From NCBI RefSeq assembly GCF_039970775.1, contig NZ_JBDVLG010000056.1, positions 472 through 64,471 of the forward strand: a stretch of DNA of 64,000 bases, in the 5' to 3' direction. Source of the DNA: Roseobacter sp. (GTDB lineage Bacteria > Pseudomonadota > Alphaproteobacteria > Rhodobacterales > Rhodobacteraceae). Positions 16,889 through 46,820 of the stretch are shown in pieces. Position numbers and translations under genes: made by a program. Within the stretch, counting starts at the first letter, position 1; each line of letters opens with the position of its first letter. The notes under the pieces are model-generated. The model searched no databases and was not told the DNA's origin. It was given only the letters and a program-made list of their open reading frames with translations.

Positions 16889-17902
16889 CTAAGGTGCTGC
16901 CAAAGACCCCCGAGCGATAAACTCTGTCGGCAGCTCAACCGACACCGCATCCGCGCCACCGTTCAGCTTGGCCAACAAAGCACGCGCCGCAGCTCGGCCC
17001 ATTTCGGTCTGTGGAACTCGAACCGTTGCAAGAGGCGGCGTGACAACAGAGGCCAACCCAATATCGTCGAACCCGACCAACGACAGCTGCCCCGGCACAT
17101 CAACGCCCATGTCTCGTGCCCGCATCAAAGCCCCCGTCGCCAAAACGTCGTTCCCACAAATCACGACGGTGGGCCGCGCATCTGATGTCATGATGCGTTC
17201 AAACGCTTCGGCACCGTATTCCAACCGATATTTCGCCTCTTCTGAGTGCACCAAAACGGCGCCCTGATCATGCGCCGCAATAGCGTCGATCACCCCCTGA
17301 TACCGATCCGATGCACGGTCATTCCCCGCGTGCGGGCCAGAGATCATTGCGATCCGCCGGTGTCCCAGCCCCAAAACACGACGGGTCGCGTCAAAAGCCG
17401 CCTTGTGGTTGTCAAAACCGATGCAAAGCTGGTCAATATCGGGGCGAAAATACCATGAAATAACATGCGGCACCCGTCGCTTGGCCAAGAAATCTCGGGT
17501 CGCTTGGGGACGGGCCTGACCAATCAACATCAGCCCATCAGCGCCATGGGCAATCAAAGCCTTGATCTGCCGGAATTCCTGATCCGGATCGTCTGCAGTC
17601 GTGGCCAAAAGCAAGTTCACACCTGCCTCGGACAACGCCTCCTGGAAGGCTTGGACCCCCGTTGCAAACATCGCATTTGCCATGCTGGGAATGATCGCGC
17701 CAACTGTATTGGTCCGGTTTGAGGCCAGCGCGCGCCCGCCAAAATTTGGCGTATACCCCAAGGTTTCGATCGCACGTTCGATCTTGACACGCGTTGGTTT
17801 GGCAACCTTATCGGGGTCATTAAGAGCCCGCGATATACTGGCGGTGGACACGCCCGCCATGCGGGCGACGTCTTCTAAAGTGGGCGCGGTAATTTTGGTC
17901 AT
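16889..17902 (-). CDS. LacI-family transcriptional regulator of the DHPS locus (HpsR-like)
   Basis: PTLEDVARMAGVSTASISRAL HTH, LGYTPN and GFDDI; divergent from hpsN. Start MTKIT at 17902. Confidence 0.92.
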   Translation of the reverse strand: MTKITAPTLEDVARMAGVSTASISRALNDPDKVAKPTRVKIERAIETLGYTPNFGGRALASNRTNTVGAIIPSMANAMFATGVQAFQEALSEAGVNLLLATTADDPDQEFRQIKALIAHGADGLMLIGQARPQATRDFLAKRRVPHVISWYFRPDIDQLCIGFDNHKAAFDATRRVLGLGHRRIAMISGPHAGNDRASDRYQGVIDAIAAHDQGAVLVHSEEAKYRLEYGAEAFERIMTSDARPTVVICGNDVLATGALMRARDMGVDVPGQLSLVGFDDIGLASVVTPPLATVRVPQTEMGRAAARALLAKLNGGADAVSVELPTEFIARGSLAAP

Positions 17903-18002
17903 AATCAATTTATAGCGTGCTTTGTGCCGGATGGCTTCCGTTTTCGGAAAAATACACAACATATTGAATTAAAACAATAAACTTATATCTTGCGCGAATC
18001 TA

Positions 18003-18016
18003 TGTAAGCGCTTACA
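18003..18016. promoter_or_regulatory. LacI-type operator
   Basis: Perfect palindrome TGTAAGCGCTTACA with a central CG, between the LacI gene and hpsN. Confidence 0.82.
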
Positions 18017-18149
18017 AAAATAGTTAACGCGAGACACTTAACTTCGTTTCACGGCGACACCCCCGCATAAAAGGCGTCGGCCATTTGACCGGCCCTCGTG
18101 GATGGCGCCGGTTACACCCACGACCCCGATGATCAGATAGGACCCTTTC

Positions 18150-19457
18150 ATGGCGCGCGCATATCTTAAGAAAGCTCAGAAAACTGCGATGACGGATGCG
18201 GGCGATGTGCGCGCGACCGTTCAGGACATTCTGGATGATATCGAGGCTGGCGGCGACGCGACGGCCCTGAAATACGCGCAGAAATTCGACAATTATCAGG
18301 GCCGCACCGTGCTGGGCGAGGAAGAGATCGCAGCGGCATCTGTCCTTGTGTCGCAAAAGCTGAAAGATGACATCGCGTTTGCGCATGACAACGTGCGCCG
18401 CTTTGCGGAGGTCCAGAAATCCACGATGACCGACGTGGAACTAGAAGTCGTGCCGGGGCTGATCGCGGGTCAAAAGGCCATCCCCTGCCGAGCGGCAGGT
18501 TGCTATGTTCCTGGTGGGCGGTACAGCCACATCGCCAGCGCCATCATGACGGTAACAACCGCCAAAGTGGCCGGTTGCCAAAACATCACAGCCTGTTCGC
18601 CCCCCCGCGCTGGCGAAGGCATCGCGCCCGCGATCATCTATGCGGCCAATCTGTGCGGCGCCGACAAGATCCTGTCCATGGGCGGCGTGCAAGGCGTTGC
18701 CGCGATGACCTTTGGCCTGTTTGGCCTTCCCAAGGCGGATATTTTGGTCGGGCCCGGCAACCAGTTTGTAGCCGAAGCCAAACGCATTCTTTTTGGCCGC
18801 GTCGGCATCGACATGATCGCAGGGCCTACCGACAGCCTGATTTTGGCGGATCACAGCGCCGACCCCTTCATTGTGGCAACAGATCTGGTTGGACAAGCCG
18901 AACATGGGTATAACTCGCCAGTTTGGTTGGTGACAGACAACCGCGCGCTGGCCGAAAAGGTGATGGAAATTGTTCCAAACCTGATCGCCGACCTACCAGA
19001 ACTGAACCGCACCAATGCAGAAGCCGCCTGGCGCGACTATGCAGAAGTCATCATCTGCGACACCCCCGAAGAAATGGCAGCCTGTTCTGATGATTACGCC
19101 CCCGAACACCTGACCGTGCAGGCGGAAAACCTGCCCTGGTGGTTAGACCGGTTGCAATGCTACGGATCGTTGTTTTTGGGCGAAGAAACCACCGTGGCCT
19201 TTGGCGACAAGGCCTCTGGCACCAACCATGTTTTGCCCACGTCGCAATCAGCGAAATATACCGGCGGCCTGTCGGTGCACAAATACATGAAAATCGTCAC
19301 TTGGCAGCGATCTACACGGGACGGCGCGCGCCCCATCGCCGAGGCCACGGCGCGCATTTCGCGGTTGGAAGGCATGGAAGGGCACGCGCGGTCGGCGGAT
19401 GCGCGGTTGCACAAATACTTCCCGGATGAAAATTTCGACCTGTCAGCGCGGGATTGA
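18150..19457 (+). CDS. hpsN: Sulfopropanediol (DHPS) 3-dehydrogenase, histidinol dehydrogenase homologue
   Basis: HisD fold with YVPGGRYSHIASA, QAEHGYNSP, DKASGTNHVLPT and EGMEGHAR, matching the roseobacter HpsN type as recalled; followed by hpsO/hpsP-type genes. Confidence 0.9.
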   Translation: MARAYLKKAQKTAMTDAGDVRATVQDILDDIEAGGDATALKYAQKFDNYQGRTVLGEEEIAAASVLVSQKLKDDIAFAHDNVRRFAEVQKSTMTDVELEVVPGLIAGQKAIPCRAAGCYVPGGRYSHIASAIMTVTTAKVAGCQNITACSPPRAGEGIAPAIIYAANLCGADKILSMGGVQGVAAMTFGLFGLPKADILVGPGNQFVAEAKRILFGRVGIDMIAGPTDSLILADHSADPFIVATDLVGQAEHGYNSPVWLVTDNRALAEKVMEIVPNLIADLPELNRTNAEAAWRDYAEVIICDTPEEMAACSDDYAPEHLTVQAENLPWWLDRLQCYGSLFLGEETTVAFGDKASGTNHVLPTSQSAKYTGGLSVHKYMKIVTWQRSTRDGARPIAEATARISRLEGMEGHARSADARLHKYFPDENFDLSARD

Positions 19458-19463
19458 ACCCAG

Positions 19464-20216
19464 ATGACCGCGCTCTTTGATGTGTCTGGCAAAACAGCCT
19501 GCGTGACCGGGGCCAGCAGCGGCCTTGGCCGTCAGGCGGCGCGGCGGTTGGCCGAAGCCGGGTGCCGGGTCGTCGGGGTGGCACGGCGCGGCGATCAGTT
19601 GGCTGAATGGCAATCCCAAACCAACGGGGATACCGCCGCAGTGACCGCGGATTTGTCGGACCGATCTGCTTTGGGTGACGTTGCTTCGGCTGTGTCAGCA
19701 CCCTTTGGGACAATCGACATTCTGGTGAATGCAGCAGGTATCAACACCCGCCAACACGCCGATGACGTCACCGACAATGGTTGGGATCTAACGCTCGATC
19801 TAAACCTCGCGGCGCCCTTCTTTTTGGCCCAAAAACTGGTGCCCGGCATGAAAACGCGCGGATGGGGGCGGATCATCAATTTTGCGTCGCTGCAATCGCA
19901 ACGCGCCTTTGCAAACGGCATCAGCTATGGCGCGTCAAAGGGTGCGGTCGAACAAATGACCCGCGCCATGGCCGAAGCATGGTCTGGCAACGGGATCACC
20001 GCAAACGCGTTGGCCCCCGGATTTTTCCGCACCGAATTGACCGGCCCCGTCTTTGCCGACCCAGTTCTGGCGCAACGCAACGCCGATCAAACATGCATCG
20101 GGCGCAACGGCGAACCAGCAGACCTAGACGGCCCGCTTATGTTCTTTTGTTCTGACGCCTCTGCTTATGTGACCGGCCAAACATTGTTCGTCGACGGGGG
20201 GTTCACCGCAAAATGA
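19464..20216 (+). CDS. hpsO: SDR dehydrogenase (HpsO-type DHPS 2-dehydrogenase)
   Basis: TGASSGLG, NAAG and YGASK; position directly after hpsN. Confidence 0.78.
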   Translation: MTALFDVSGKTACVTGASSGLGRQAARRLAEAGCRVVGVARRGDQLAEWQSQTNGDTAAVTADLSDRSALGDVASAVSAPFGTIDILVNAAGINTRQHADDVTDNGWDLTLDLNLAAPFFLAQKLVPGMKTRGWGRIINFASLQSQRAFANGISYGASKGAVEQMTRAMAEAWSGNGITANALAPGFFRTELTGPVFADPVLAQRNADQTCIGRNGEPADLDGPLMFFCSDASAYVTGQTLFVDGGFTAK

Positions 20217-21220
20217 AAGCGCTTGTTTATACCGGTGTCAAAGAGCTGTCATATATGGACCGCCCCATGCCCCAACCGCAAGACGATGAGGTGTTGGTTC
20301 GGGTCATGGCATCTGGCATCTGCGGGTCGGATATGCACGCGTACCTGGGGCATGACGCCCGCCGCCCCGCGCCGCTGACCTTGGGCCACGAAGCCGCAGG
20401 TGTGGTGGTGGGCGGCCCGGACGATGGCCGCCGCGTGACGATCAACCCGCTGGTGGCGTGCCAAGCCTGCGGGTTGTGCGACACCGGTCGCGAAAACCTA
20501 TGCGCCAGACGCCAGATTATCTCGATGCCACCGCGTCAGGGCGCCTTTGCCGACTATGTCACCATGCCGCCGCGCAACCTGATCACTGTGCCAGACCACA
20601 CGCCCCTGACACATGCAGCGCTGGCTGAACCCATCGCCTGCGGCTGGCACGGGGTGCGGCTTGGGCGCGGTGTTCTGACCTGCGATCTGTCTTCGGCACG
20701 GACTGTGGTGATCGGCGGCGGCGCGATTGGCGTTGGCGCGGCATTGTCGCTGGCCGCACAAGGGGTGGGTGATATCACCTTGATCGAACCAAACGAGACG
20801 CGGCGTGCGCATCTGGCTGATATCGCAGGGTTTGAGGTTTGCGGCCCAGACGAGCCCGCGATGCCTGCCGAAGGGTCAGCGGATATTGTGATTGATGGCG
20901 TTGGTTTTGCCACCACGCGGGCATCGGCCAGTACGATTGCGCGCGCCGGTGGGGTGATCGTGCACATCGGGCTTGGCGAGGCCACCGGGGGCCTCGATAT
21001 ACGGCGGATGACCTTGCAAGAAATCACGTTCATCGGCACCTACACCTACACCGCTCGGGATTTTGCAGAAACAGCAGCCGCTATATTTGACGGCCGTTTG
21101 GGCAAACTCGACTGGATCGAAACGCGCCCCTTGTCAAAGGGGCACAGGGCCTTCAAAGACATCCGCGCAGGCCATGTCCCCGCCCCAAAAGTCATTTTGA
21201 CCCCCGAACACGACGCGTGA
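20213..21220 (+). CDS. hpsP: Zn-dependent alcohol dehydrogenase (HpsP-type)
   Basis: GICGSD, GHE, CQACGLC...C structural Zn and GGGAIG; coupled to hpsO. Confidence 0.78.
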   Translation: MKALVYTGVKELSYMDRPMPQPQDDEVLVRVMASGICGSDMHAYLGHDARRPAPLTLGHEAAGVVVGGPDDGRRVTINPLVACQACGLCDTGRENLCARRQIISMPPRQGAFADYVTMPPRNLITVPDHTPLTHAALAEPIACGWHGVRLGRGVLTCDLSSARTVVIGGGAIGVGAALSLAAQGVGDITLIEPNETRRAHLADIAGFEVCGPDEPAMPAEGSADIVIDGVGFATTRASASTIARAGGVIVHIGLGEATGGLDIRRMTLQEITFIGTYTYTARDFAETAAAIFDGRLGKLDWIETRPLSKGHRAFKDIRAGHVPAPKVILTPEHDA

Positions 21221-21424
21221 CAACGGGCATACTAACTAGCAGATGCGCGCCAGAAAGACCATTGATATGCACATGGACCCGGTGATCCTGCCACCACCAT
21301 ACCAAAGACGCGGTTGCTTTTTAGGGCACGCAGGGTGGCGCGTTCTGGGCTGTGCGCCCCGACCTTTCCCTTTCATACGTTAACAGCGCTGCTGCATCAG
21401 CGCCTCACCACAAGGAGTACTTAG

Positions 21425-21931
21425 GTGTCCATCAGTAGTAAGATTGTGGATGACTTCGTTGCCAGCGGCATCGATTTTGTCACCACTGTACCATGCAAAC
21501 AATTGGCCGGCGTGATCGAAGACATTGAGGCCCGCAAAGAGATCTTCCATATTCCGTCCAACAAAGAAGACGAAGGCATGGGCCTGTGCGCCGGCGCCTA
21601 TATGGGCGGCAAGCGCCCTGCGATCATCATGCAAAACACCGCCATCGGTGTGACCATCAACACATTGGTCACCCTGACGCAGTTCTACCGGATGCCCCTG
21701 CCGATGTTGATTTCCTATCGCGGTGAACTGCGCGAGCCGGTCGCCTGTCAGGTGGAAATGGCCGTGCACACCAAAGCGCTGCTGAACCAATTGCTGATCC
21801 CGACGTATCATTTTCACAAGGAATCCGACGCAGAAGAACTGCCCGAGATCCTGAAATACTCTTTCATGTGCAATAAACCTGTGGCGATCCTGACGGATGC
21901 GTCCTTCTGGGGAGGCTACGGCGACCAATGA
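21425..21931 (+). CDS. comD: Sulfopyruvate decarboxylase subunit alpha
   Basis: GTG start after an AAGGAG RBS; TVPC, NKEDEGMGLCAG, MQNTAIG and SYRGE; sulfonate context. Confidence 0.85.
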   Translation: MSISSKIVDDFVASGIDFVTTVPCKQLAGVIEDIEARKEIFHIPSNKEDEGMGLCAGAYMGGKRPAIIMQNTAIGVTINTLVTLTQFYRMPLPMLISYRGELREPVACQVEMAVHTKALLNQLLIPTYHFHKESDAEELPEILKYSFMCNKPVAILTDASFWGGYGDQ

Positions 21932-22482
21932 TCCGTTCTGAAATCCTGAAAGACATCGCCCCGATCCTGCGCGACCAACTGGTGATCTGTAACATCGGCA
22001 TCCCCAGCCAAGAGCTGCACGCCATCGATGATCAGCCCACAAATTTCTACATGCTGGGTACGATGGGCTTGGCCTCGTCGATTGGTCTTGGTGTGGCGCT
22101 GGCACAATCCAAACCCGTGATCGCGATCGATGGGGATGGGTCGATTTTGACCAACATGGGCACCTTGCCAACCATCGCCAACAACGTCGCAAATAACTTC
22201 ATCCTGATGATCATCGACAATGGATCTTATGGATCCACCGGCGATCAACCCACCTATGCCGGTAAGAAAACATCACTGGCCAAAGTGGCCGAAGCCTGCG
22301 GATGCGAGCGGGTGATTGAATGCAAAGACGTCGATACCGGGCGCGTCCTGCAAGAGGCGTTGGACAGCGGCGAGATGACGGTCATGGTCGTGAAATGCGA
22401 CAGTGGCAACGCCAAGATGCCGGTGATCACCATGGACCCTGTCGTGATCCGCGACCGGTTTATGACGTCGGTTAAGGCCTAA
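21928..22482 (+). CDS. comE: Sulfopyruvate decarboxylase subunit beta (ThDP-binding)
   Basis: FYMLGTMG, IDGDGS...DNG ThDP motif and STGDQPT; coupled to comD. Confidence 0.85.
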   Translation: MIRSEILKDIAPILRDQLVICNIGIPSQELHAIDDQPTNFYMLGTMGLASSIGLGVALAQSKPVIAIDGDGSILTNMGTLPTIANNVANNFILMIIDNGSYGSTGDQPTYAGKKTSLAKVAEACGCERVIECKDVDTGRVLQEALDSGEMTVMVVKCDSGNAKMPVITMDPVVIRDRFMTSVKA

Positions 22483-22486
22483 GCAC

Positions 22487-23590
22487 GTGCGCCGTGCGGA
22501 TGCCATCCACAGCTATACAGACGCCCGCCGCCTGGCGCGCCGACGTTTGCCGTGGATGGTATTCGACTACATTGATGGAGCGGCGGGAGAAGGTGTGGCC
22601 GAGGCCCGCAATCTTGCCGCTCTGCGCGACATTCAGTTGCAGCCGCGCGTTTTGGTCAACGTCAAGGACCGCGATTTGAGCGCACCTGTCTTTGACCATG
22701 CAGGTCACGCGCCCTTTGGGATCAGCCCGATGGGGATGTGCAACCTTTCAGCGCCGGGCGCCGACCTGATGTTGGCGCGCATGGCCGCAAAACACCACGT
22801 ACCGGTTGGAGCATCTACCGTGGCGTCAACCAGTCTTGAGAAAATCATCGACGAAGCCAACGGTCACGCCTGGTTTCAGCTGTATTTTAGCGGCGATGGC
22901 AGCGGGACACAAAAGCTTGTTGAACGTGCCAAAGTGGCCGGATATCGCACGTTGGTCGTGACGCTAGACGTCCCCGAAGTTGGCCGCCGCCCGCGCGAAC
23001 TGCGGCGTGGTTTCAAGATGCCCTTCCGCATTGGCCCGATGCAATTTATTGACTTTGCGCTGCATCCGTTTTGGTCAATCCCAACGGTACGGGCAGGAAC
23101 ACCGGTGCTGGCCAATTTCACCCAAGATGGATTTTCCTTTGATCGCACCGAAAGCCGGGCCGCCGCTGACTGGGGGTTTTTGAAACGGCTGCGCGATCAA
23201 TGGGACGGGCAGCTGGTTGCCAAAGGTGTCACCCATGTGGGCGATGCCTTGCGCTTAAAAGAAGAAGGCGTCGACGCGATCCAAGTTTCGAGCCACGGAG
23301 GGCGTCAGTTGGATGCCGGACCGCCCCCGATTTTGGCATTGCGCGCCATTCGCGACGTCGTTGGGGACACATATCCGTTGTTTTATGATAGCGGCCTGCG
23401 GTCTGGTGAAGACGTCGTTAAGGCGTATCAAATGGGCGCGAGTTTCGTTTTCTTTGGGCGCGCGATGCAATTCGCGATTGCCGCAGGCGGTGAGCCCGGA
23501 TTGCACCGCCTTTGGGATTTATTGACACAAGAGGTGGGGCTGACGTTGGCCCAAATGGGCCTGTCACGCCTGCCCCGCTCTGATTGTTAA
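22487..23590 (+). CDS. FMN-dependent alpha-hydroxy acid dehydrogenase (SlcD-like sulfolactate dehydrogenase candidate)
   Basis: FDYIDGAAG, ISPMG, WFQLY, VSSHGGRQLD and DSGLRSG; downstream of comDE. Confidence 0.82.
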   Translation: MRRADAIHSYTDARRLARRRLPWMVFDYIDGAAGEGVAEARNLAALRDIQLQPRVLVNVKDRDLSAPVFDHAGHAPFGISPMGMCNLSAPGADLMLARMAAKHHVPVGASTVASTSLEKIIDEANGHAWFQLYFSGDGSGTQKLVERAKVAGYRTLVVTLDVPEVGRRPRELRRGFKMPFRIGPMQFIDFALHPFWSIPTVRAGTPVLANFTQDGFSFDRTESRAAADWGFLKRLRDQWDGQLVAKGVTHVGDALRLKEEGVDAIQVSSHGGRQLDAGPPPILALRAIRDVVGDTYPLFYDSGLRSGEDVVKAYQMGASFVFFGRAMQFAIAAGGEPGLHRLWDLLTQEVGLTLAQMGLSRLPRSDC

Positions 23591-41456: not shown

Positions 41457-41610
41457 ATTTGGACCTTTCAAGACAGTTTGAGGGGGATGATACCGCAATG
41501 TGGGTGTATGGTGTCGGGTCTATGGCGCGCGGCGCAGGTCATTATGGACCGCACAGCCAAACCACATGCGGTTCGCGGATGCGCAAGCCTTCCTGCGCAT
41601 CCGCGGGGTG

Positions 41611-42654
41611 TCATTTGATTTCGAAATCCATCGCAGCCCCGATTGTGCCGTTCCAGACGGTGGTACAGTCGTCGCCGCACCGGTCTTTATATGCGGGCAA
41701 AACGGCGTTTGTCGCGGCATCCGCCATCAACGCGATATCGGCGGGTGTGGCGGCCACCAATGTCATATCGGCCGCCGTGCCGTAATCGCACGCCCCGCCC
41801 CTGTTGCACGCCAAACCATCGGCAGTTTCCGTCGACGCCAGCGCAAACATGTCCTCTTCGAGCGCCATCAACCCGTTTTCGAGCGCCGCCTGCGCAGCAG
41901 CGTCGACGTCGTTCCACCAGTCCATATTCGCGATATGCGCAATAACGCCGTGGTTAATCGGCACCGCCGAAATATAGTCGGCCGGTTCATGCCATTTCGC
42001 AAGGAACCCCGACAATGCACCCGTGATCGCACAGTCGATGGTGCCGTTAGCCATGGCTGTGGGCACTTCGCCAAACGCCATCCCGATGGGCGATGCGCCG
42101 ATATATTCTAGAAACACCTGCTGCGATGCGCCAGACGCGCGCACCTTGCGCCCTGCCAGATCGGACAGCGTGGTGAACGCGTCGCGACAGTACACGACCT
42201 GACTTTGATAGGTGCCATAGCCCAGCAATTTGATGTTGTGATTGGTTGCGAGGTAATCGGCGTGGGTCGCACGAAACGCTTTGGCGGCGGTGTGCACGGC
42301 CTCAACATCGGCCACGACACCCACCAGATCTGTTGCCTCGTTCATCGGCACGGACCCGGATGTATAGGCCAAAACCTGATGCGCCATCTGCACCGTCCCG
42401 TTGGAGACCAACGAAAACAGCTCGCCACCCTTGAAGCCGAGTTCATTGAAAGGTTTGACATTTGCAGTGATCGCACCGCCACTGTTTGCAACGATGGTGT
42501 CTGTCCAAAACGGCAATTCCATGTCTTTGTACATTGACAGGATCCCGATGGACCCAACGACATTCAGCTGTGTTTTCGGGATGTCTTGGGCATTGGCGTG
42601 AGCCGTCGTCAGACCCAGCGCAAGCGCGCCAAACAATGTGAAATTCAGTTTCAT
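41611..42654 (-). CDS. TRAP transporter substrate-binding protein (DctP family)
   Basis: Signal peptide, DLAGRKVR (conserved Arg), FGEVPTAMANGTID; start MKLNF at 42654. Confidence 0.88.
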   Translation of the reverse strand: MKLNFTLFGALALGLTTAHANAQDIPKTQLNVVGSIGILSMYKDMELPFWTDTIVANSGGAITANVKPFNELGFKGGELFSLVSNGTVQMAHQVLAYTSGSVPMNEATDLVGVVADVEAVHTAAKAFRATHADYLATNHNIKLLGYGTYQSQVVYCRDAFTTLSDLAGRKVRASGASQQVFLEYIGASPIGMAFGEVPTAMANGTIDCAITGALSGFLAKWHEPADYISAVPINHGVIAHIANMDWWNDVDAAAQAALENGLMALEEDMFALASTETADGLACNRGGACDYGTAADMTLVAATPADIALMADAATNAVLPAYKDRCGDDCTTVWNGTIGAAMDFEIK

Positions 42655-42692
42655 AATAACCCCTCTATTGCGTTGCGCAGGAACACCCTGCC

Positions 42693-43991
42693 TTATTTTG
42701 GATTGATAGCTTCGGGCAGCCAAAGCGCGAGCCCCGGCATGATAATCAGCAACGTCACCATGATCAGCATGGCGATCAAAAAAGGGATCGACCCCACAAA
42801 CAGGTCAGAAATAGACCCCGCCTTGCGCACCGCCTGAACGATATACAGGTTCAACCCCACCGGCGGTGTGATCAACGCCGCCTCGATCAAAATCACAAAT
42901 ACGATGCCCCACCAAACGGGGTCGTACCCCAGCCCAACAATGACCGGCACGATGATCGGGGTGGTGGCGATCATCATGGAAATCGTCTCCATGAAACACC
43001 CCAAGACGAGGTAAAAAGCGATGATCGCCAACAGCATACCCAACGGCGGCCACCCCAACCCCAACAGCGATGTGGTGATCGCATCCACCAGGCCAATCGA
43101 CACCATCACAAGGTTCAGGAAAAACGCGGCCAGAACGATCAGCATGATCATGCAGGTGGTGCGCACCGTCCCCTCAAACGCGCTGAGCAAGACGGGCACC
43201 GTCAATTTGCCGTTGATCGCGACCAAACCCAGGGTGGCCATCAACCCAAGGGCGGCGGCCTCTGTGGGCGTGGCCAGCCCCACATAGATCGACCCGACGA
43301 CGACAAAAAACAGCCCCAACGGCGGCAGTAAATGCGGCAACCCTGCGATGCGCGCAGGCCAAAGTGACCCTCGCGCCTGCGGTGCGCCCGCGACAAGCGA
43401 TGGTTTTATCAGCACCGCCACCAATACGATCCCGGAAAACAACATCGCCAACATCAAACCCGGAATGAACCCCGCGGCATAAAGATCGGTGACCGATGTT
43501 TGCGACAATACCGAATAGACGATCATGTTGATGGACGGCGGGATCAAAATGCCCAACGTCCCGCCCGCGGCGATGGAGCCCAGAAACAAGGGGCGATTGT
43601 AGCCGCCCTTGTCCATATTGGGGACAGCGACGGTGCCTATTGTGGCCGCCGTTGCCAGCGACGACCCCGACGTCGCCGCAAAAACAGCGCTGGAGGCGAT
43701 ATTGGTATGGATCAATTGCCCCGGCACGCGGGCGAACCACGGTGCAAGCGCGTCAAACAGGCGTTCTGAGACGCCTGACCGGTGCATCAATTCGCCCATC
43801 ATGATGAACATCGGCGCCGCGATCAGGATGAAGTCGTTCGAGTGGCTCCAGAAAATTGGGCCGGATGCGCGGGTAAGCGGGATAAACGCGTAGTTTTCCG
43901 ACAAAAAGAACGCCGTCAGCGCCAGCACTGCCGCAACCGGCAGGCTCAGGGCCAGACCAACCAACAACAAGAAAATCGACGCCTTGATCAT
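42693..43991 (-). CDS. TRAP transporter large permease (DctM)
   Basis: SGSSLATAAT, GGTLGILIPPS and ITPPVGLNL. Confidence 0.92.
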   Translation of the reverse strand: MIKASIFLLLVGLALSLPVAAVLALTAFFLSENYAFIPLTRASGPIFWSHSNDFILIAAPMFIMMGELMHRSGVSERLFDALAPWFARVPGQLIHTNIASSAVFAATSGSSLATAATIGTVAVPNMDKGGYNRPLFLGSIAAGGTLGILIPPSINMIVYSVLSQTSVTDLYAAGFIPGLMLAMLFSGIVLVAVLIKPSLVAGAPQARGSLWPARIAGLPHLLPPLGLFFVVVGSIYVGLATPTEAAALGLMATLGLVAINGKLTVPVLLSAFEGTVRTTCMIMLIVLAAFFLNLVMVSIGLVDAITTSLLGLGWPPLGMLLAIIAFYLVLGCFMETISMMIATTPIIVPVIVGLGYDPVWWGIVFVILIEAALITPPVGLNLYIVQAVRKAGSISDLFVGSIPFLIAMLIMVTLLIIMPGLALWLPEAINPK

Positions 43992-44572
43992 GGTTTGGGG
44001 GCCTCTAGGTCAATGCCGATCTCGGCCATCTCGTCTTTGAGATCAGGGTTGGACATCACGGTCTCGACCCCGTTCAGGTCCCGTGCGACCCATCGCGACA
44101 ACGCAAAAACAGGCGTCAAACAAGCGACCGTCGCGAACCAGACAAAGCCCAGCCACCAGATACCCTGCGGCAACAGCAAGGGCACCTGCAGCGTGGATTG
44201 CGACCGCGCGCCCAGTTTCCAGCTTTGCGCCAAGACATCAAACGAATACCACGCCAATGCGACCGCCGTCACCGCCAAGGCAATGGCCGCCGTCATATCG
44301 AACGCCAACCGAAGCGGCCGGGGCAGTTGCGCCGATAAGATATCCACGCGGATGTTGGCTTTGCTGGTGACGGTAAAGCCCATGCCCAAACCAATGCATG
44401 CCGCGAATGCGTAACTAGAGATCTCAAAACTCTCCAGAACGGTGCGCCCAACAACCGCACGCGACACGACATCGATGCTGATCGGGAGCGCGCATCCAAA
44501 GAGGATAACGGCCCCGGCAAGCCAAGCCATCCACCGGCTTAGCCGTGTCACAACATCATGCATATGCAGCAC
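43988..44572 (-). CDS. TRAP transporter small permease (DctQ)
   Basis: Four hydrophobic helices, NIRVDIL; coupled to dctM. Confidence 0.85.
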   Translation of the reverse strand: MLHMHDVVTRLSRWMAWLAGAVILFGCALPISIDVVSRAVVGRTVLESFEISSYAFAACIGLGMGFTVTSKANIRVDILSAQLPRPLRLAFDMTAAIALAVTAVALAWYSFDVLAQSWKLGARSQSTLQVPLLLPQGIWWLGFVWFATVACLTPVFALSRWVARDLNGVETVMSNPDLKDEMAEIGIDLEAPKP

Positions 44573-44700
44573 CGATGATCCCCCTGTTCACCACCGTCCT
44601 GCGGGAGGTTCCTCTATTTCTTCATATTCATCAATAGTATATCGCCGCGTTGCAGGTTTGGGGTCGTTGTTTTCAACGCAACTGCCAGAAATTGCCACCC

Positions 44701-45771
44701 TTACCCGGCATAGCCCGGCAGATCGAACGCATCGGCATAACCAAACAACCCAGCACTCCCCCCGGTATGCAGAACCACGACGTTGTTCATCCCGTCGAAG
44801 TACCCCTTGGCGATTTGATCAATCAAACCGTCCAACCCCTTGCCCGAATACACCGGATCAAACAGCAGCCCTTCGGTTTGCGCCAAAAGCCGCACAGCTT
44901 TGCGCATACCTTCCGTCGGCACCCCATACCCCGGCCCGACATAGTCGCAATTTGCCCGCACCTGATTGCGCTGGATGGCCACGCCCGTGCCCAGATGGTC
45001 GGCGGTTTTGGTGGCCAAATCATACACCATCTGTTCTTGTTTTTCTCGCGGCGCGCGCACCCCGATGCCAAGCAGATGAATATCGCTTTGAAGGGCGGCA
45101 AGGCCCGTCACCAGACCTGCCTGCGTTCCCGAACTGCCGGTGGCATGAACCAATGCGTCCACCGCGAGCCCAATTTCCATTGATTGTTCGACCAATTCAC
45201 GTGCGCAATTCACATACCCCAACGCGCCAATTGGGTTCGACCCGCCCCCCGGTATGATGTAGGGTACATCGCCCGCGTCGCGCAGATGCGCGGCCAATGT
45301 TTCCATTTCGGCATTCATATCGGCCCCATTAGGCCGTTTGGACACGCGCGCGCCATGCAGGCGGTCCAATAGCACGTTGCCATTCAGAATATAGTTTGGG
45401 TCATTTGACCCCGTCCGGTCTTCCAGCAAAACATCGCACCCCAGCCCCAGCTTTGCTGCCGCTGCCGCCGTTTGACGCGCATGATTCGACTGGGTCGCCC
45501 CTTGGGTGATGATGGTCGTGGCACCCTTTTCGCGGGCATCCGCCATCAAATATTCCAGTTTTCGGGTCTTGTTCCCCCCGGATGACAACCCGGTGCAATC
45601 GTCACGTTTGACCCACAGACGCGGCCCGCCCAACATCTCGCTCAGCCGGTCCATCGGTTCCAACGGCGTCGGCCAATGCCCCAACTTCACCCGTGGAAAT
45701 GCCCCAAGAGCGCGTTCCAGCGCCTTGCACGCGTCATGCATAGGATCGGTGAATGCTTCGGTTGTGGTCAC
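44701..45771 (-). CDS. cuyA: PLP-dependent cysteate sulfo-lyase / D-cysteine desulfhydrase family (CuyA-like)
   Basis: [44 protein letters not shown] and LHTGG. The S/T residues exclude ACC deaminase. It closely resembles roseobacter CuyA as recalled. Confidence 0.75.
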
Positions 45772-45881
45772 AAGATGCGTCCCCCATTGCGCTGTTTCCC
45801 AAAGCGTTGCACGTGGTGGGCTTGTCTGGATACTGCCGATTTCCTAGGGTGCTCATACCAAAAGTATTGGCAAATGAAGGA

Positions 45882-46820
45882 ATGGCCATGGATCTCCGGT
45901 GGCTTGATGATGCGTTGGTGTTGCTCGAAGAACGGAACTTGACCCGCGCAGCAGCACGCAGAAACATAACGCAACCAGCCTTTTCACGGCGCATTCGCAG
46001 TTTCGAAGACTGGCTGGGCACACCCGTCTTGGACCGTGGCAGCAACAGCATAGGCCTAAGCCCCGCTTTGGCTGCGAACGAACGAGAGATACGCGCCCTG
46101 TCCGAACGCATCTACGCATTGCGCGGTCGTATCGCCAATTTTGAACCCGCCCGGTCAACCATCACCATCGCCGCGCAACATGCTCCGATCCACTCGACGT
46201 TCCCCGACATGGCCGTTTGGGCAAAACATCTGTACCCCACGGTGAGTTTTCGGATGCAGGCAGGGGATCACCGCGACTGCGTGTCGATGTTTTTGCGCCG
46301 CGATACCGATATCCTTTTGTGTTACGAAGCGGAAGGTGACCCCCCGCTGCCTTTTGGCGATGCCATCAAACGGGCAGTATGGGGCACCGATTATCTCGTG
46401 CCCGTCCTTGGCGGCGACCTGCGCAATATGGTCGCGGCTGACGGATCGATCCCAGATGACCTGCCCGCCATTGTTTACCCCACCACCAGTTATTTCGGTG
46501 AGATCCTGGGCAAACGGGCCAAACCCTTCGGCACCAGCCCCCAGTCGCGCAACGTGGCCTGCGAGACCGCATTTTCCAACGGCATCAAAGAGTTGGCGTT
46601 GAAAGGGATCGGGGTCGGGTGGGTCCCGCTAAGCATGTCGCAGAGCGAACTTGAAAGCGGGGACCTCGTCTCTGTGGCGCCTCAATTGGGCGAATTACCG
46701 GTGCAAAACACACTGTATGCCTATGCGGCAGACGAGGTTCCCACCGCGCTGTTAAACGCGTGGGACAAAAAAGGCGGCGTCGAGGCCCCCGTGCAGCCGA
46801 CACCCCCAAGCACAGGTTAA
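45882..46820 (+). CDS. LysR-family regulator (CuyR-like position)
   Basis: LTRAAARRNITQPAFSRRIRSFEDWLG HTH; divergent from the cuyA-like gene. Start 45882 or 45888. Confidence 0.9.
   Translation: MAMDLRWLDDALVLLEERNLTRAAARRNITQPAFSRRIRSFEDWLGTPVLDRGSNSIGLSPALAANEREIRALSERIYALRGRIANFEPARSTITIAAQHAPIHSTFPDMAVWAKHLYPTVSFRMQAGDHRDCVSMFLRRDTDILLCYEAEGDPPLPFGDAIKRAVWGTDYLVPVLGGDLRNMVAADGSIPDDLPAIVYPTTSYFGEILGKRAKPFGTSPQSRNVACETAFSNGIKELALKGIGVGWVPLSMSQSELESGDLVSVAPQLGELPVQNTLYAYAADEVPTALLNAWDKKGGVEAPVQPTPPSTG

Follow-up and report, generated by a model that had tools for sequence, protein, structure and literature searches.

Does a transporter encoded directly behind a lyase gene import the substrate of that lyase? 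The question is raised by a five-gene unit in 64,000 nucleotides of DNA from Roseobacter sp. (hereafter the window; positions 472 to 64,471 of NZ_JBDVLG010000056.1, contig C56 of a 3.74 Mb genome assembly that is 90% complete). In this unit, a lysR gene is divergent from a cuyA-like lyase gene that is followed by dctQ, dctM and dctP, the genes of a transporter of the tripartite ATP-independent periplasmic (TRAP) type. The original prediction for this locus held that the transporter imports cysteate or another C3-sulfonate, possibly in place of the HpsKLM transporter, and that the lyase forms a second branch of a bifurcated pathway together with an hps-com locus elsewhere in the window. All five open reading frames were found to be intact and arranged as that prediction described. 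Our comparisons show that the unit is a mosaic, whose lysR-lyase half and TRAP half have two separate origins. We consider it about an even call that the captured transporter still carries a glutamate-type ligand, its adjacency to the lyase gene reflecting history and the unit being independent of the hps-com locus.

The two halves separate clearly in DNA alignments: positions 41613-44584 match TRAP cassettes alone (70-77%), positions 44706-46787 match lyase cassettes alone, and blastn found no match to either cassette type for positions 44585-44705. The module junction between the lyase and dctQ genes occupies 44573..44700 (minus strand). Its last approximately 90 bases read YTIDEY followed by a stop, in register with the HIVDEY and HTVDEF tails of M20 hydrolases, and the ungapped identity to M20 tails is about 50% at offset 0 to -1. 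The local score of this tail exceeded 1000 of 1000 shuffles when compared with one TRAP cassette (L195) and was weak against four other loci (31-220/1000). On this moderate evidence, the gap probably holds the decayed 3' end of an M20 hydrolase gene, and the breakpoint would then be within that gene. A breakpoint of this kind argues against the junction being a chimera of metagenome assembly, an explanation that draws on the fact that the junction is known from one assembly only; no second genome with it was found among about 100 DctP loci and about 60 lyase loci. Since the M20 tail is decayed rather than intact, GC and GC3 (GC content at third codon positions) are similar on both sides of the junction and the contamination of the genome is 0.01%, we regard a chimera as highly improbable.

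Where the TRAP half came from can be read from its relatives. All three of its genes lie on the minus strand: dctQ (43988..44572) encodes a small permease of 194 aa with 71-81% identity to the products of PF04290 genes in D-glutamate cyclase cassettes; dctM (42693..43991) encodes a large permease of 432 aa (TIGR00786 score 291, cut-off 268) with 86-92% identity to its cassette relatives; and dctP (41611..42654) encodes a binding protein of 347 aa that matches TRAP_S1 and is of a single-arginine type. The closest relatives of DctP, at 80-87% identity, are encoded in cassettes in which a lysR gene is divergent from an M20 hydrolase-dctQMP operon that faces a D-glutamate cyclase gene (PF07286). 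Among relatives at 55-60% identity, a position 3' of genes for hydantoinase/oxoprolinase A and B is frequent, and a LamB/YcsF (PxpA-family) cluster precedes one of them. Gene contexts were counted over distinct proteins that share at least 50% identity with the window DctP, many of them near-copies, so that the counts are not independent. A D-glutamate cyclase gene was present beside 7 of the 13 close relatives with downstream DNA, and cyclase or oxoprolinase genes beside 23 of 64 mid-distance relatives. The smallest supported set in a FastTree phylogeny consists of the window protein, six cyclase-linked proteins and one unlabelled protein.

Sulfonate genes are rare neighbours of these transporters. 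None of the 53 DctP-relative loci with at least 3.3 kb of upstream DNA carries cuyA; at one locus hpsN is located 6 kb away, separated by an ATP-binding cassette (ABC) system, and two loci have comDE-like genes. Judged by gene context, the relatives of the window DctP thus do not form a group encoded beside sulfonate genes. No orthologue of the window transporter was found in any of 33 Roseobacter congeners. Pararhizobium IMCC21322 has both modules, 4.3 Mb apart, and its lyase gene is accompanied by its own ABC importer. The slot 5' of dctQ varies among close relatives, being filled by a full or truncated M20 gene, an FAD oxidoreductase gene or a glycerol kinase-like gene, or left empty, which indicates that the TRAP cassette does land behind unrelated genes. 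The window genome itself contains a D-glutamate cyclase gene (53%) and hydantoinase/oxoprolinase-family genes elsewhere.

Several further observations concern this transporter clade. In other copies of the cassette, the M20 gene is cut down or seemingly decayed (L195:1566-2174, L026:150-300), suggesting repeated loss. A TRAP paralogue of 37% identity in the same genome (L175:5415-13183, contig C48) lies in a cluster ordered D-glutamate cyclase-dctPQM-DUF2848-M24 peptidase-LysR-amidase. The clade is also accompanied, 3' of dctP, by a gene (L105:9874-10206) whose 110-aa product matches no Pfam family; the gene is missing from the window, and a 58% homologue of its product is encoded on contig C41 (44824-45159).

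The binding site of DctP was examined next to those of sulfonate-binding TRAP proteins. The AlphaFold model of DctP (predicted local confidence, pLDDT, 92) has the TRAP fold; the solved relatives returned by PDB sequence and fold searches do not exceed about 20% identity. The KVR motif that had been taken as an anion-binding signature is indeed present, and its Arg172 is invariant in 117 homologues; it is, though, the family-wide TRAP carboxylate arginine, described in PMC4646407 as a carboxylate filter, and is uninformative on sulfonates. HpsK, which binds 2,3-dihydroxypropanesulfonate (DHPS), anchors the sulfonate through Arg184, Arg207, Asn128 and Ser125 (PMC13335735), and the isethionate binder IseP relies on two arginines together with Ser95 and Asn98 (PMC11668362). 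Using a congener HpsK checked against 24GC (E 1e-195) as reference, Arg184 aligns with Gln152 of DctP, which is invariant in the 117 homologues. The Ser/Asn pair corresponds to Val94/Tyr97, with a less certain register at the 21% identity of this alignment, and the capping Trp corresponds to Phe194. By the aligned residues, DctP therefore lacks the two-arginine clamp, the domain I Ser-x-x-Asn motif and the capping Trp of the sulfonate TRAPs, although it shares their fold and family-wide arginine. Cysteate could still be held through its carboxylate despite the missing clamp.

The pyroglutamate binders DctP6 and DctP7 of Bordetella pertussis (2PFZ, 2PFY), which align a Gln with Gln152 and likewise have a single Arg, rank with the best matches to DctP by profile and by fold. 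At only about 20% identity to DctP they are probably not its orthologues, and their ligand is not transferable by sequence; aromatic-acid and sialic-acid binders score similarly. Compared with 42 close relatives, the window protein has no residue of its own at 37 candidate pocket positions, most of which are invariant.

The lyase half tells a different history. The lyase gene (44701..45771, minus strand) encodes an enzyme dependent on pyridoxal 5'-phosphate (PLP) that, by its profile score, belongs to the CuyA family: it exceeds the NCBIfam equivalog model for D-cysteate sulfo-lyase, NF052482, with 518.5 bits against a cut-off of 450. On the same basis 1-aminocyclopropane-1-carboxylate (ACC) deaminase was rejected (250 bits against a cut-off of 392), and the scores are below all three family cut-offs for D-cysteine desulfhydrase. 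In alignments, the catalytic Lys (which binds PLP), Ser, Asn, Tyr and Thr match both D-cysteine desulfhydrase and CuyA (catalytic residues from PMC11193023), while the GATQSNH and EDR motifs agree with CuyA and not with the Salmonella enzyme. The gene is the sole one of the CuyA type in the assembly. Its product is 62% identical to CuyA of Ruegeria pomeroyi and 75-86% identical to the members of a separate group, which we named CuyA'; the split between CuyA' and CuyA has 100/100 support in a maximum-likelihood tree rooted at the midpoint only.

CuyA' genes are nearly always encoded with an importer. An ABC importer stands 3' of the lyase in 43 of 45 distinct CuyA' loci, of the ProX/ProV/ProW-like type in 33 and of the GltI-like amino-acid type in 10, with neither in the remaining two; a TRAP of the window type was found in none. 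A lyase-plus-importer logic is thus reasonable for the CuyA' clade. The window lyase nests among the GltI-ABC cassettes with 100/98 support. The regulator has the same origin, since the lysR product (45888..46820, plus strand; LysR family match) is 64-75% identical to the LysR proteins adjoining the closest cuyA' genes, 34% identical to R. pomeroyi CuyR and, beyond the shared fold (15%, E 4), shows nothing in common with the LysR of the TRAP source cassette. CuyA' was found in 22 of the 33 congeners. The CuyB racemase, which supplies D-cysteate from the L-form, was found in four, all of which have canonical CuyA, and in only one of the 22 with CuyA'.

Two side observations bear on the cassette type. 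The commonest one (33 of 45 loci; L143-L161, for example L156:6283-12803) combines the ProX/ProV/ProW-like ABC genes with, usually, an alpha/beta hydrolase gene, and has no CuyB. A conjugative Phaeobacter plasmid (L019:1428-13091) carries a cuyA'-GltI cassette beside genes for aspartate ammonia-lyase, an amino acid racemase and a dicarboxylate/amino acid symporter, indicating that the cassette can be mobile.

CuyA' may also not be mainly a cysteate lyase at all, in which case its substrate would be D-cysteine or a different beta-substituted D-alanine, with the transporter as either the importer for CuyA' or a passenger. The separation from characterised CuyA, the lack of a CuyB or CuyZ neighbour and the predominant pairing with a ProX-like ABC importer and an alpha/beta hydrolase all fit this view, as do the nearest solved structure, 7YSK, which is annotated as a D-cysteine desulfhydrase, and the side activity of CuyA enzymes on D-cysteine (PMC11193023). 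The profile scores and the two motifs point the other way, and we think this explanation improbable.

Taken with the junction, these origins suggest the following course of events for a glutamate-type transporter. A rearrangement joined lysR-cuyA', from a lyase-ABC cassette that is GltI-like in the nearest relatives, to dctQMP from an M20-dctQMP/cyclase cassette. The transporter genes would thereby have been cut off from their former upstream gene and promoter and would now be read through from cuyA' under the control of the cuyA' LysR. The lyase would break down a D-configured substrate by PLP-dependent beta-elimination; this substrate would most likely be D-cysteate acquired from outside, and the products pyruvate, ammonia and sulfite, of which the sulfite could be handled by exporter and Soe-like genes on contig C22. 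DctP would grip a carboxylate through its single Arg172 and most likely bind 5-oxoproline, D-glutamate or N-acyl-glutamate, a ligand type that the D-glutamate cyclase and oxoprolinase-family genes of the genome would serve.

Several observations weigh against a transporter that is merely a neighbour of the lyase. No terminator-like site was found between cuyA' and dctQ; since the upstream control region of the TRAP cassette is also gone from the window, read-through is likely, and with it co-transcription of cuyA' and dctQMP. The three TRAP genes are intact with a ratio of nonsynonymous to synonymous substitution rates (dN/dS) of about 0.1 or less, the synonymous rate being near saturation so that the selection cannot be dated. 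The transporter occupies exactly the position of the importer in 43 of 45 lyase relatives. A search of the genome for an orthologue of the lost GltI-like binding protein found none (best 26%), so that the lyase would otherwise be without an importer. The ligand of the source-clade TRAP is itself deduced from gene neighbours only, and the pocket positions of DctP were assigned from alignment and not from coordinates. Finally, where most oxoprolinase-linked members carry Thr and Phe, the close DctP clade has a fixed His92 and His235, a pair that could hold a second acid group.

Several of these points favour a functional swap, in which a TRAP pre-adapted to acidic D-amino acids, as the D-glutamate cyclase genes beside its clade would suggest, imports D-cysteate, an isostere of aspartate, by its carboxylate and supplies it straight to the D-specific lyase, so that no racemase is needed. 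The displaced importer belongs to the glutamate/aspartate-binding GltI family; with CuyB in one of 22 CuyA' genomes, the substrate should arrive D-configured; and in R. pomeroyi cuyA2 is followed by a sulfonate-associated ABC importer (PMC9870897, PMC9038784). Against the swap, the junction occurs in a single genome, the candidate pocket is unchanged relative to the cyclase-linked proteins, the sulfonate clamp is missing, and the TRAP cassette is found behind unrelated genes too. We therefore hold the swap to be possible but clearly the less probable reading. Slightly less probable still is its wider form, that acidic D-amino acids are the substrates of an uncharacterised TRAP clade with a single arginine, which has here replaced the GltI-like ABC system as D-cysteate importer for a racemase-independent CuyA'. 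If this is true, the window would hold a cysteate TRAP that works without the sulfonate clamp known so far and a sign of direct D-cysteate uptake from seawater.

The model of the original prediction, in which the transporter stands in for HpsKLM in the uptake of DHPS, sulfolactate or cysteate and cuyA' provides the second branch of a comDE/cuyA pathway, was assessed with the hps-com locus. This hpsR-hpsNOP-comDE-slcD locus (16889..23590, by family matches to HpsN-like, short-chain dehydrogenase/reductase, zinc-dependent alcohol dehydrogenase, ComD, ComE and SlcD-like proteins) lies outside the unit and ends 18.0 kb from the dctP stop, in agreement with the distance of about 18 kb given earlier, and it has no transporter genes. 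In favour of the model, HpsK was not found in the window genome, comDE and xsc are present, and in three congeners about 15 kb separate a cuyA'-ABC cassette from hpsN. The distribution of the genes does not bear the replacement out: hpsN occurs in 33 of 33 congeners and the window transporter in none, so that the two are not co-distributed, and HpsK was found in 8 of 33, leaving 25 that have hpsN with no HpsK found. In all 30 congener loci shown, hpsR directly adjoins hpsN in the same transporter-less layout. Such a locus is therefore the norm of the genus and calls for no replacement by the window transporter. DctP moreover lacks the two-arginine clamp and is 21% identical to HpsK, and the 18 kb between the two loci hold unrelated genes in a content unlike that of the congeners. 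Together with the gene context of its relatives, the binding site does not support a sulfonate specificity of DctP, which is probably not the importer of cysteate or another C3-sulfonate originally proposed.

The bifurcated pathway meets a stereochemical obstacle as well. Transamination of sulfopyruvate would yield L-cysteate. The two CuyA enzymes characterised so far have a 50- to 100-fold preference for D-cysteate and need CuyB for the L-form (PMC11193023). CuyB was found in the window genome neither by the family model nor by two CuyB queries (genome 90% complete), so that on the gene content recovered no route from L-cysteate to a D-specific lyase is apparent, and it was likewise not found in 21 of the 22 CuyA' congeners. 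A transamination branch through CuyA' would thus be poor, and is unlikely, unless the stereochemistry differs or the tenth of the genome that is missing contains cuyB. For sulfopyruvate a complete route by ComDE and Xsc exists, since xsc is encoded on contig C22, beside pta-like, YeiH/CuyZ-like exporter and Soe-like genes and with a taurine-type ABC system on the same contig; slcD, comDE and xsc of the bifurcated sulfolactate pathway are all present. SuyB was not found in the genome, where the lone PF04295 match is GarD-like. Given the D-specificity of CuyA, the failure to find CuyB and the normality of hps loci with no transporter, we consider the bifurcated pathway unlikely and the model as a whole very unlikely. 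The statement that the unit itself has no racemase or sulfite exporter gene was confirmed, the exporter-like gene being the one on C22.

Comparison with characterised systems places the unit among known parts. R. pomeroyi cuyR-cuyA-cuyZ (SPOA0159-0157) and Bilophila wadsworthia cuyAB (PMC11193023) share the enzyme family and catalytic residues with the window lyase, and the R. pomeroyi locus also shares the divergent LysR layout. In contrast to both, the window lyase belongs to a separate clade (62%), has no cuyZ or cuyB neighbour and is followed by importer genes. In this respect the layout of the unit resembles that of R. pomeroyi cuyA2 (SPO2657): an importer directly follows a CuyA-type lyase, and the ABC genes SPO2658-2661 are a possible sulfonate importer (PMC9870897), listed under cysteate in PMC9038784. 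The nearest lyase relatives of the window have the same binding protein-permease-permease-ATPase order as SPO2658-2661, whereas the window has a TRAP where the ABC importer stands. The function originally proposed for the window transporter belongs in R. pomeroyi to cuyTUVW (SPO3040-3043), a mutant-verified cysteate importer of the ABC type (PMC10130141). Our literature searches agree with the statement that no cysteate TRAP has been characterised. Each part of the window unit is of a known kind, and the combination was seen in the window genome alone; no characterised member could be confirmed for either the CuyA' clade or the TRAP clade.

A lyase-TRAP pairing of another type was found in three other genomes, G178 (L312:5212-11592), G225 (L313:6558-12910) and G329 (L323), where lysR is divergent from a CuyA-type lyase-dctP-dctQ-dctM unit; in the two examined, G178 and G225, an amidase gene follows. 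Two lyases of this set were tested and pass NF052482, with 517 and 500 bits. The DctP resembles IseP (E 1e-59) and keeps both arginines, the Ser-x-x-Asn motif and the Trp. Judging from these residues, this system is a much better candidate for the cysteate or sulfonate TRAP that the original prediction sought, possibly for N-acyl-cysteate.

The D-preference of CuyA has been called puzzling, and little is known of where each cysteate isomer comes from in nature (PMC11193023). CuyA' occurs in two-thirds of the Roseobacter genomes; an importer accompanies it almost invariably and CuyB hardly ever, so the ligand of its binding protein should name the natural substrate. For that question the window pairing, a one-genome rearrangement, is the weakest entry, and the GltI-like, ProX-like and IseP-like partners found in relatives make better targets. 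More generally, the case illustrates that adjacency and the conserved TRAP arginine are insufficient for assigning a ligand.

The remaining features of the unit are regulatory. The lysR start was set at 45888 instead of 45753 from the position of the Shine-Dalgarno sequence and from homologues. The region between lysR and cuyA' (45772..45887) would contain their control elements and promoters; DNA-level alignment runs through it to two relatives (L198/L199), and a promoter scan found no sigma-70 consensus in it. Directly past the dctP stop, a 14-bp GC-rich hairpin (41572..41607), with a T-run on the plus-strand side only, may mark a transcript end.

Minor observations were also made on the hps-com locus and the racemases. 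HpsK, the DHPS-binding protein, was found in only 8 of the 33 hpsN-bearing congeners (L262-L291; window 16889-21220). Most congeners examined have a 134-aa Usp-like gene (hpsQ-type) between hpsP and comD, which is missing from the window (21221-21424), where only the 44 nt before comD still match that layout. The three congeners with a cuyA'-GltI cassette about 15 kb from hpsN (L292, L293; G424, G408 and also G421) have different intervening genes from the window, and the arrangement is probably independent. A CuyC-like (cysteinolate racemase-like) gene, 57% identical to a cuyA-linked copy, lies among housekeeping genes of the window genome (contig C52, 94009-95217; L221).

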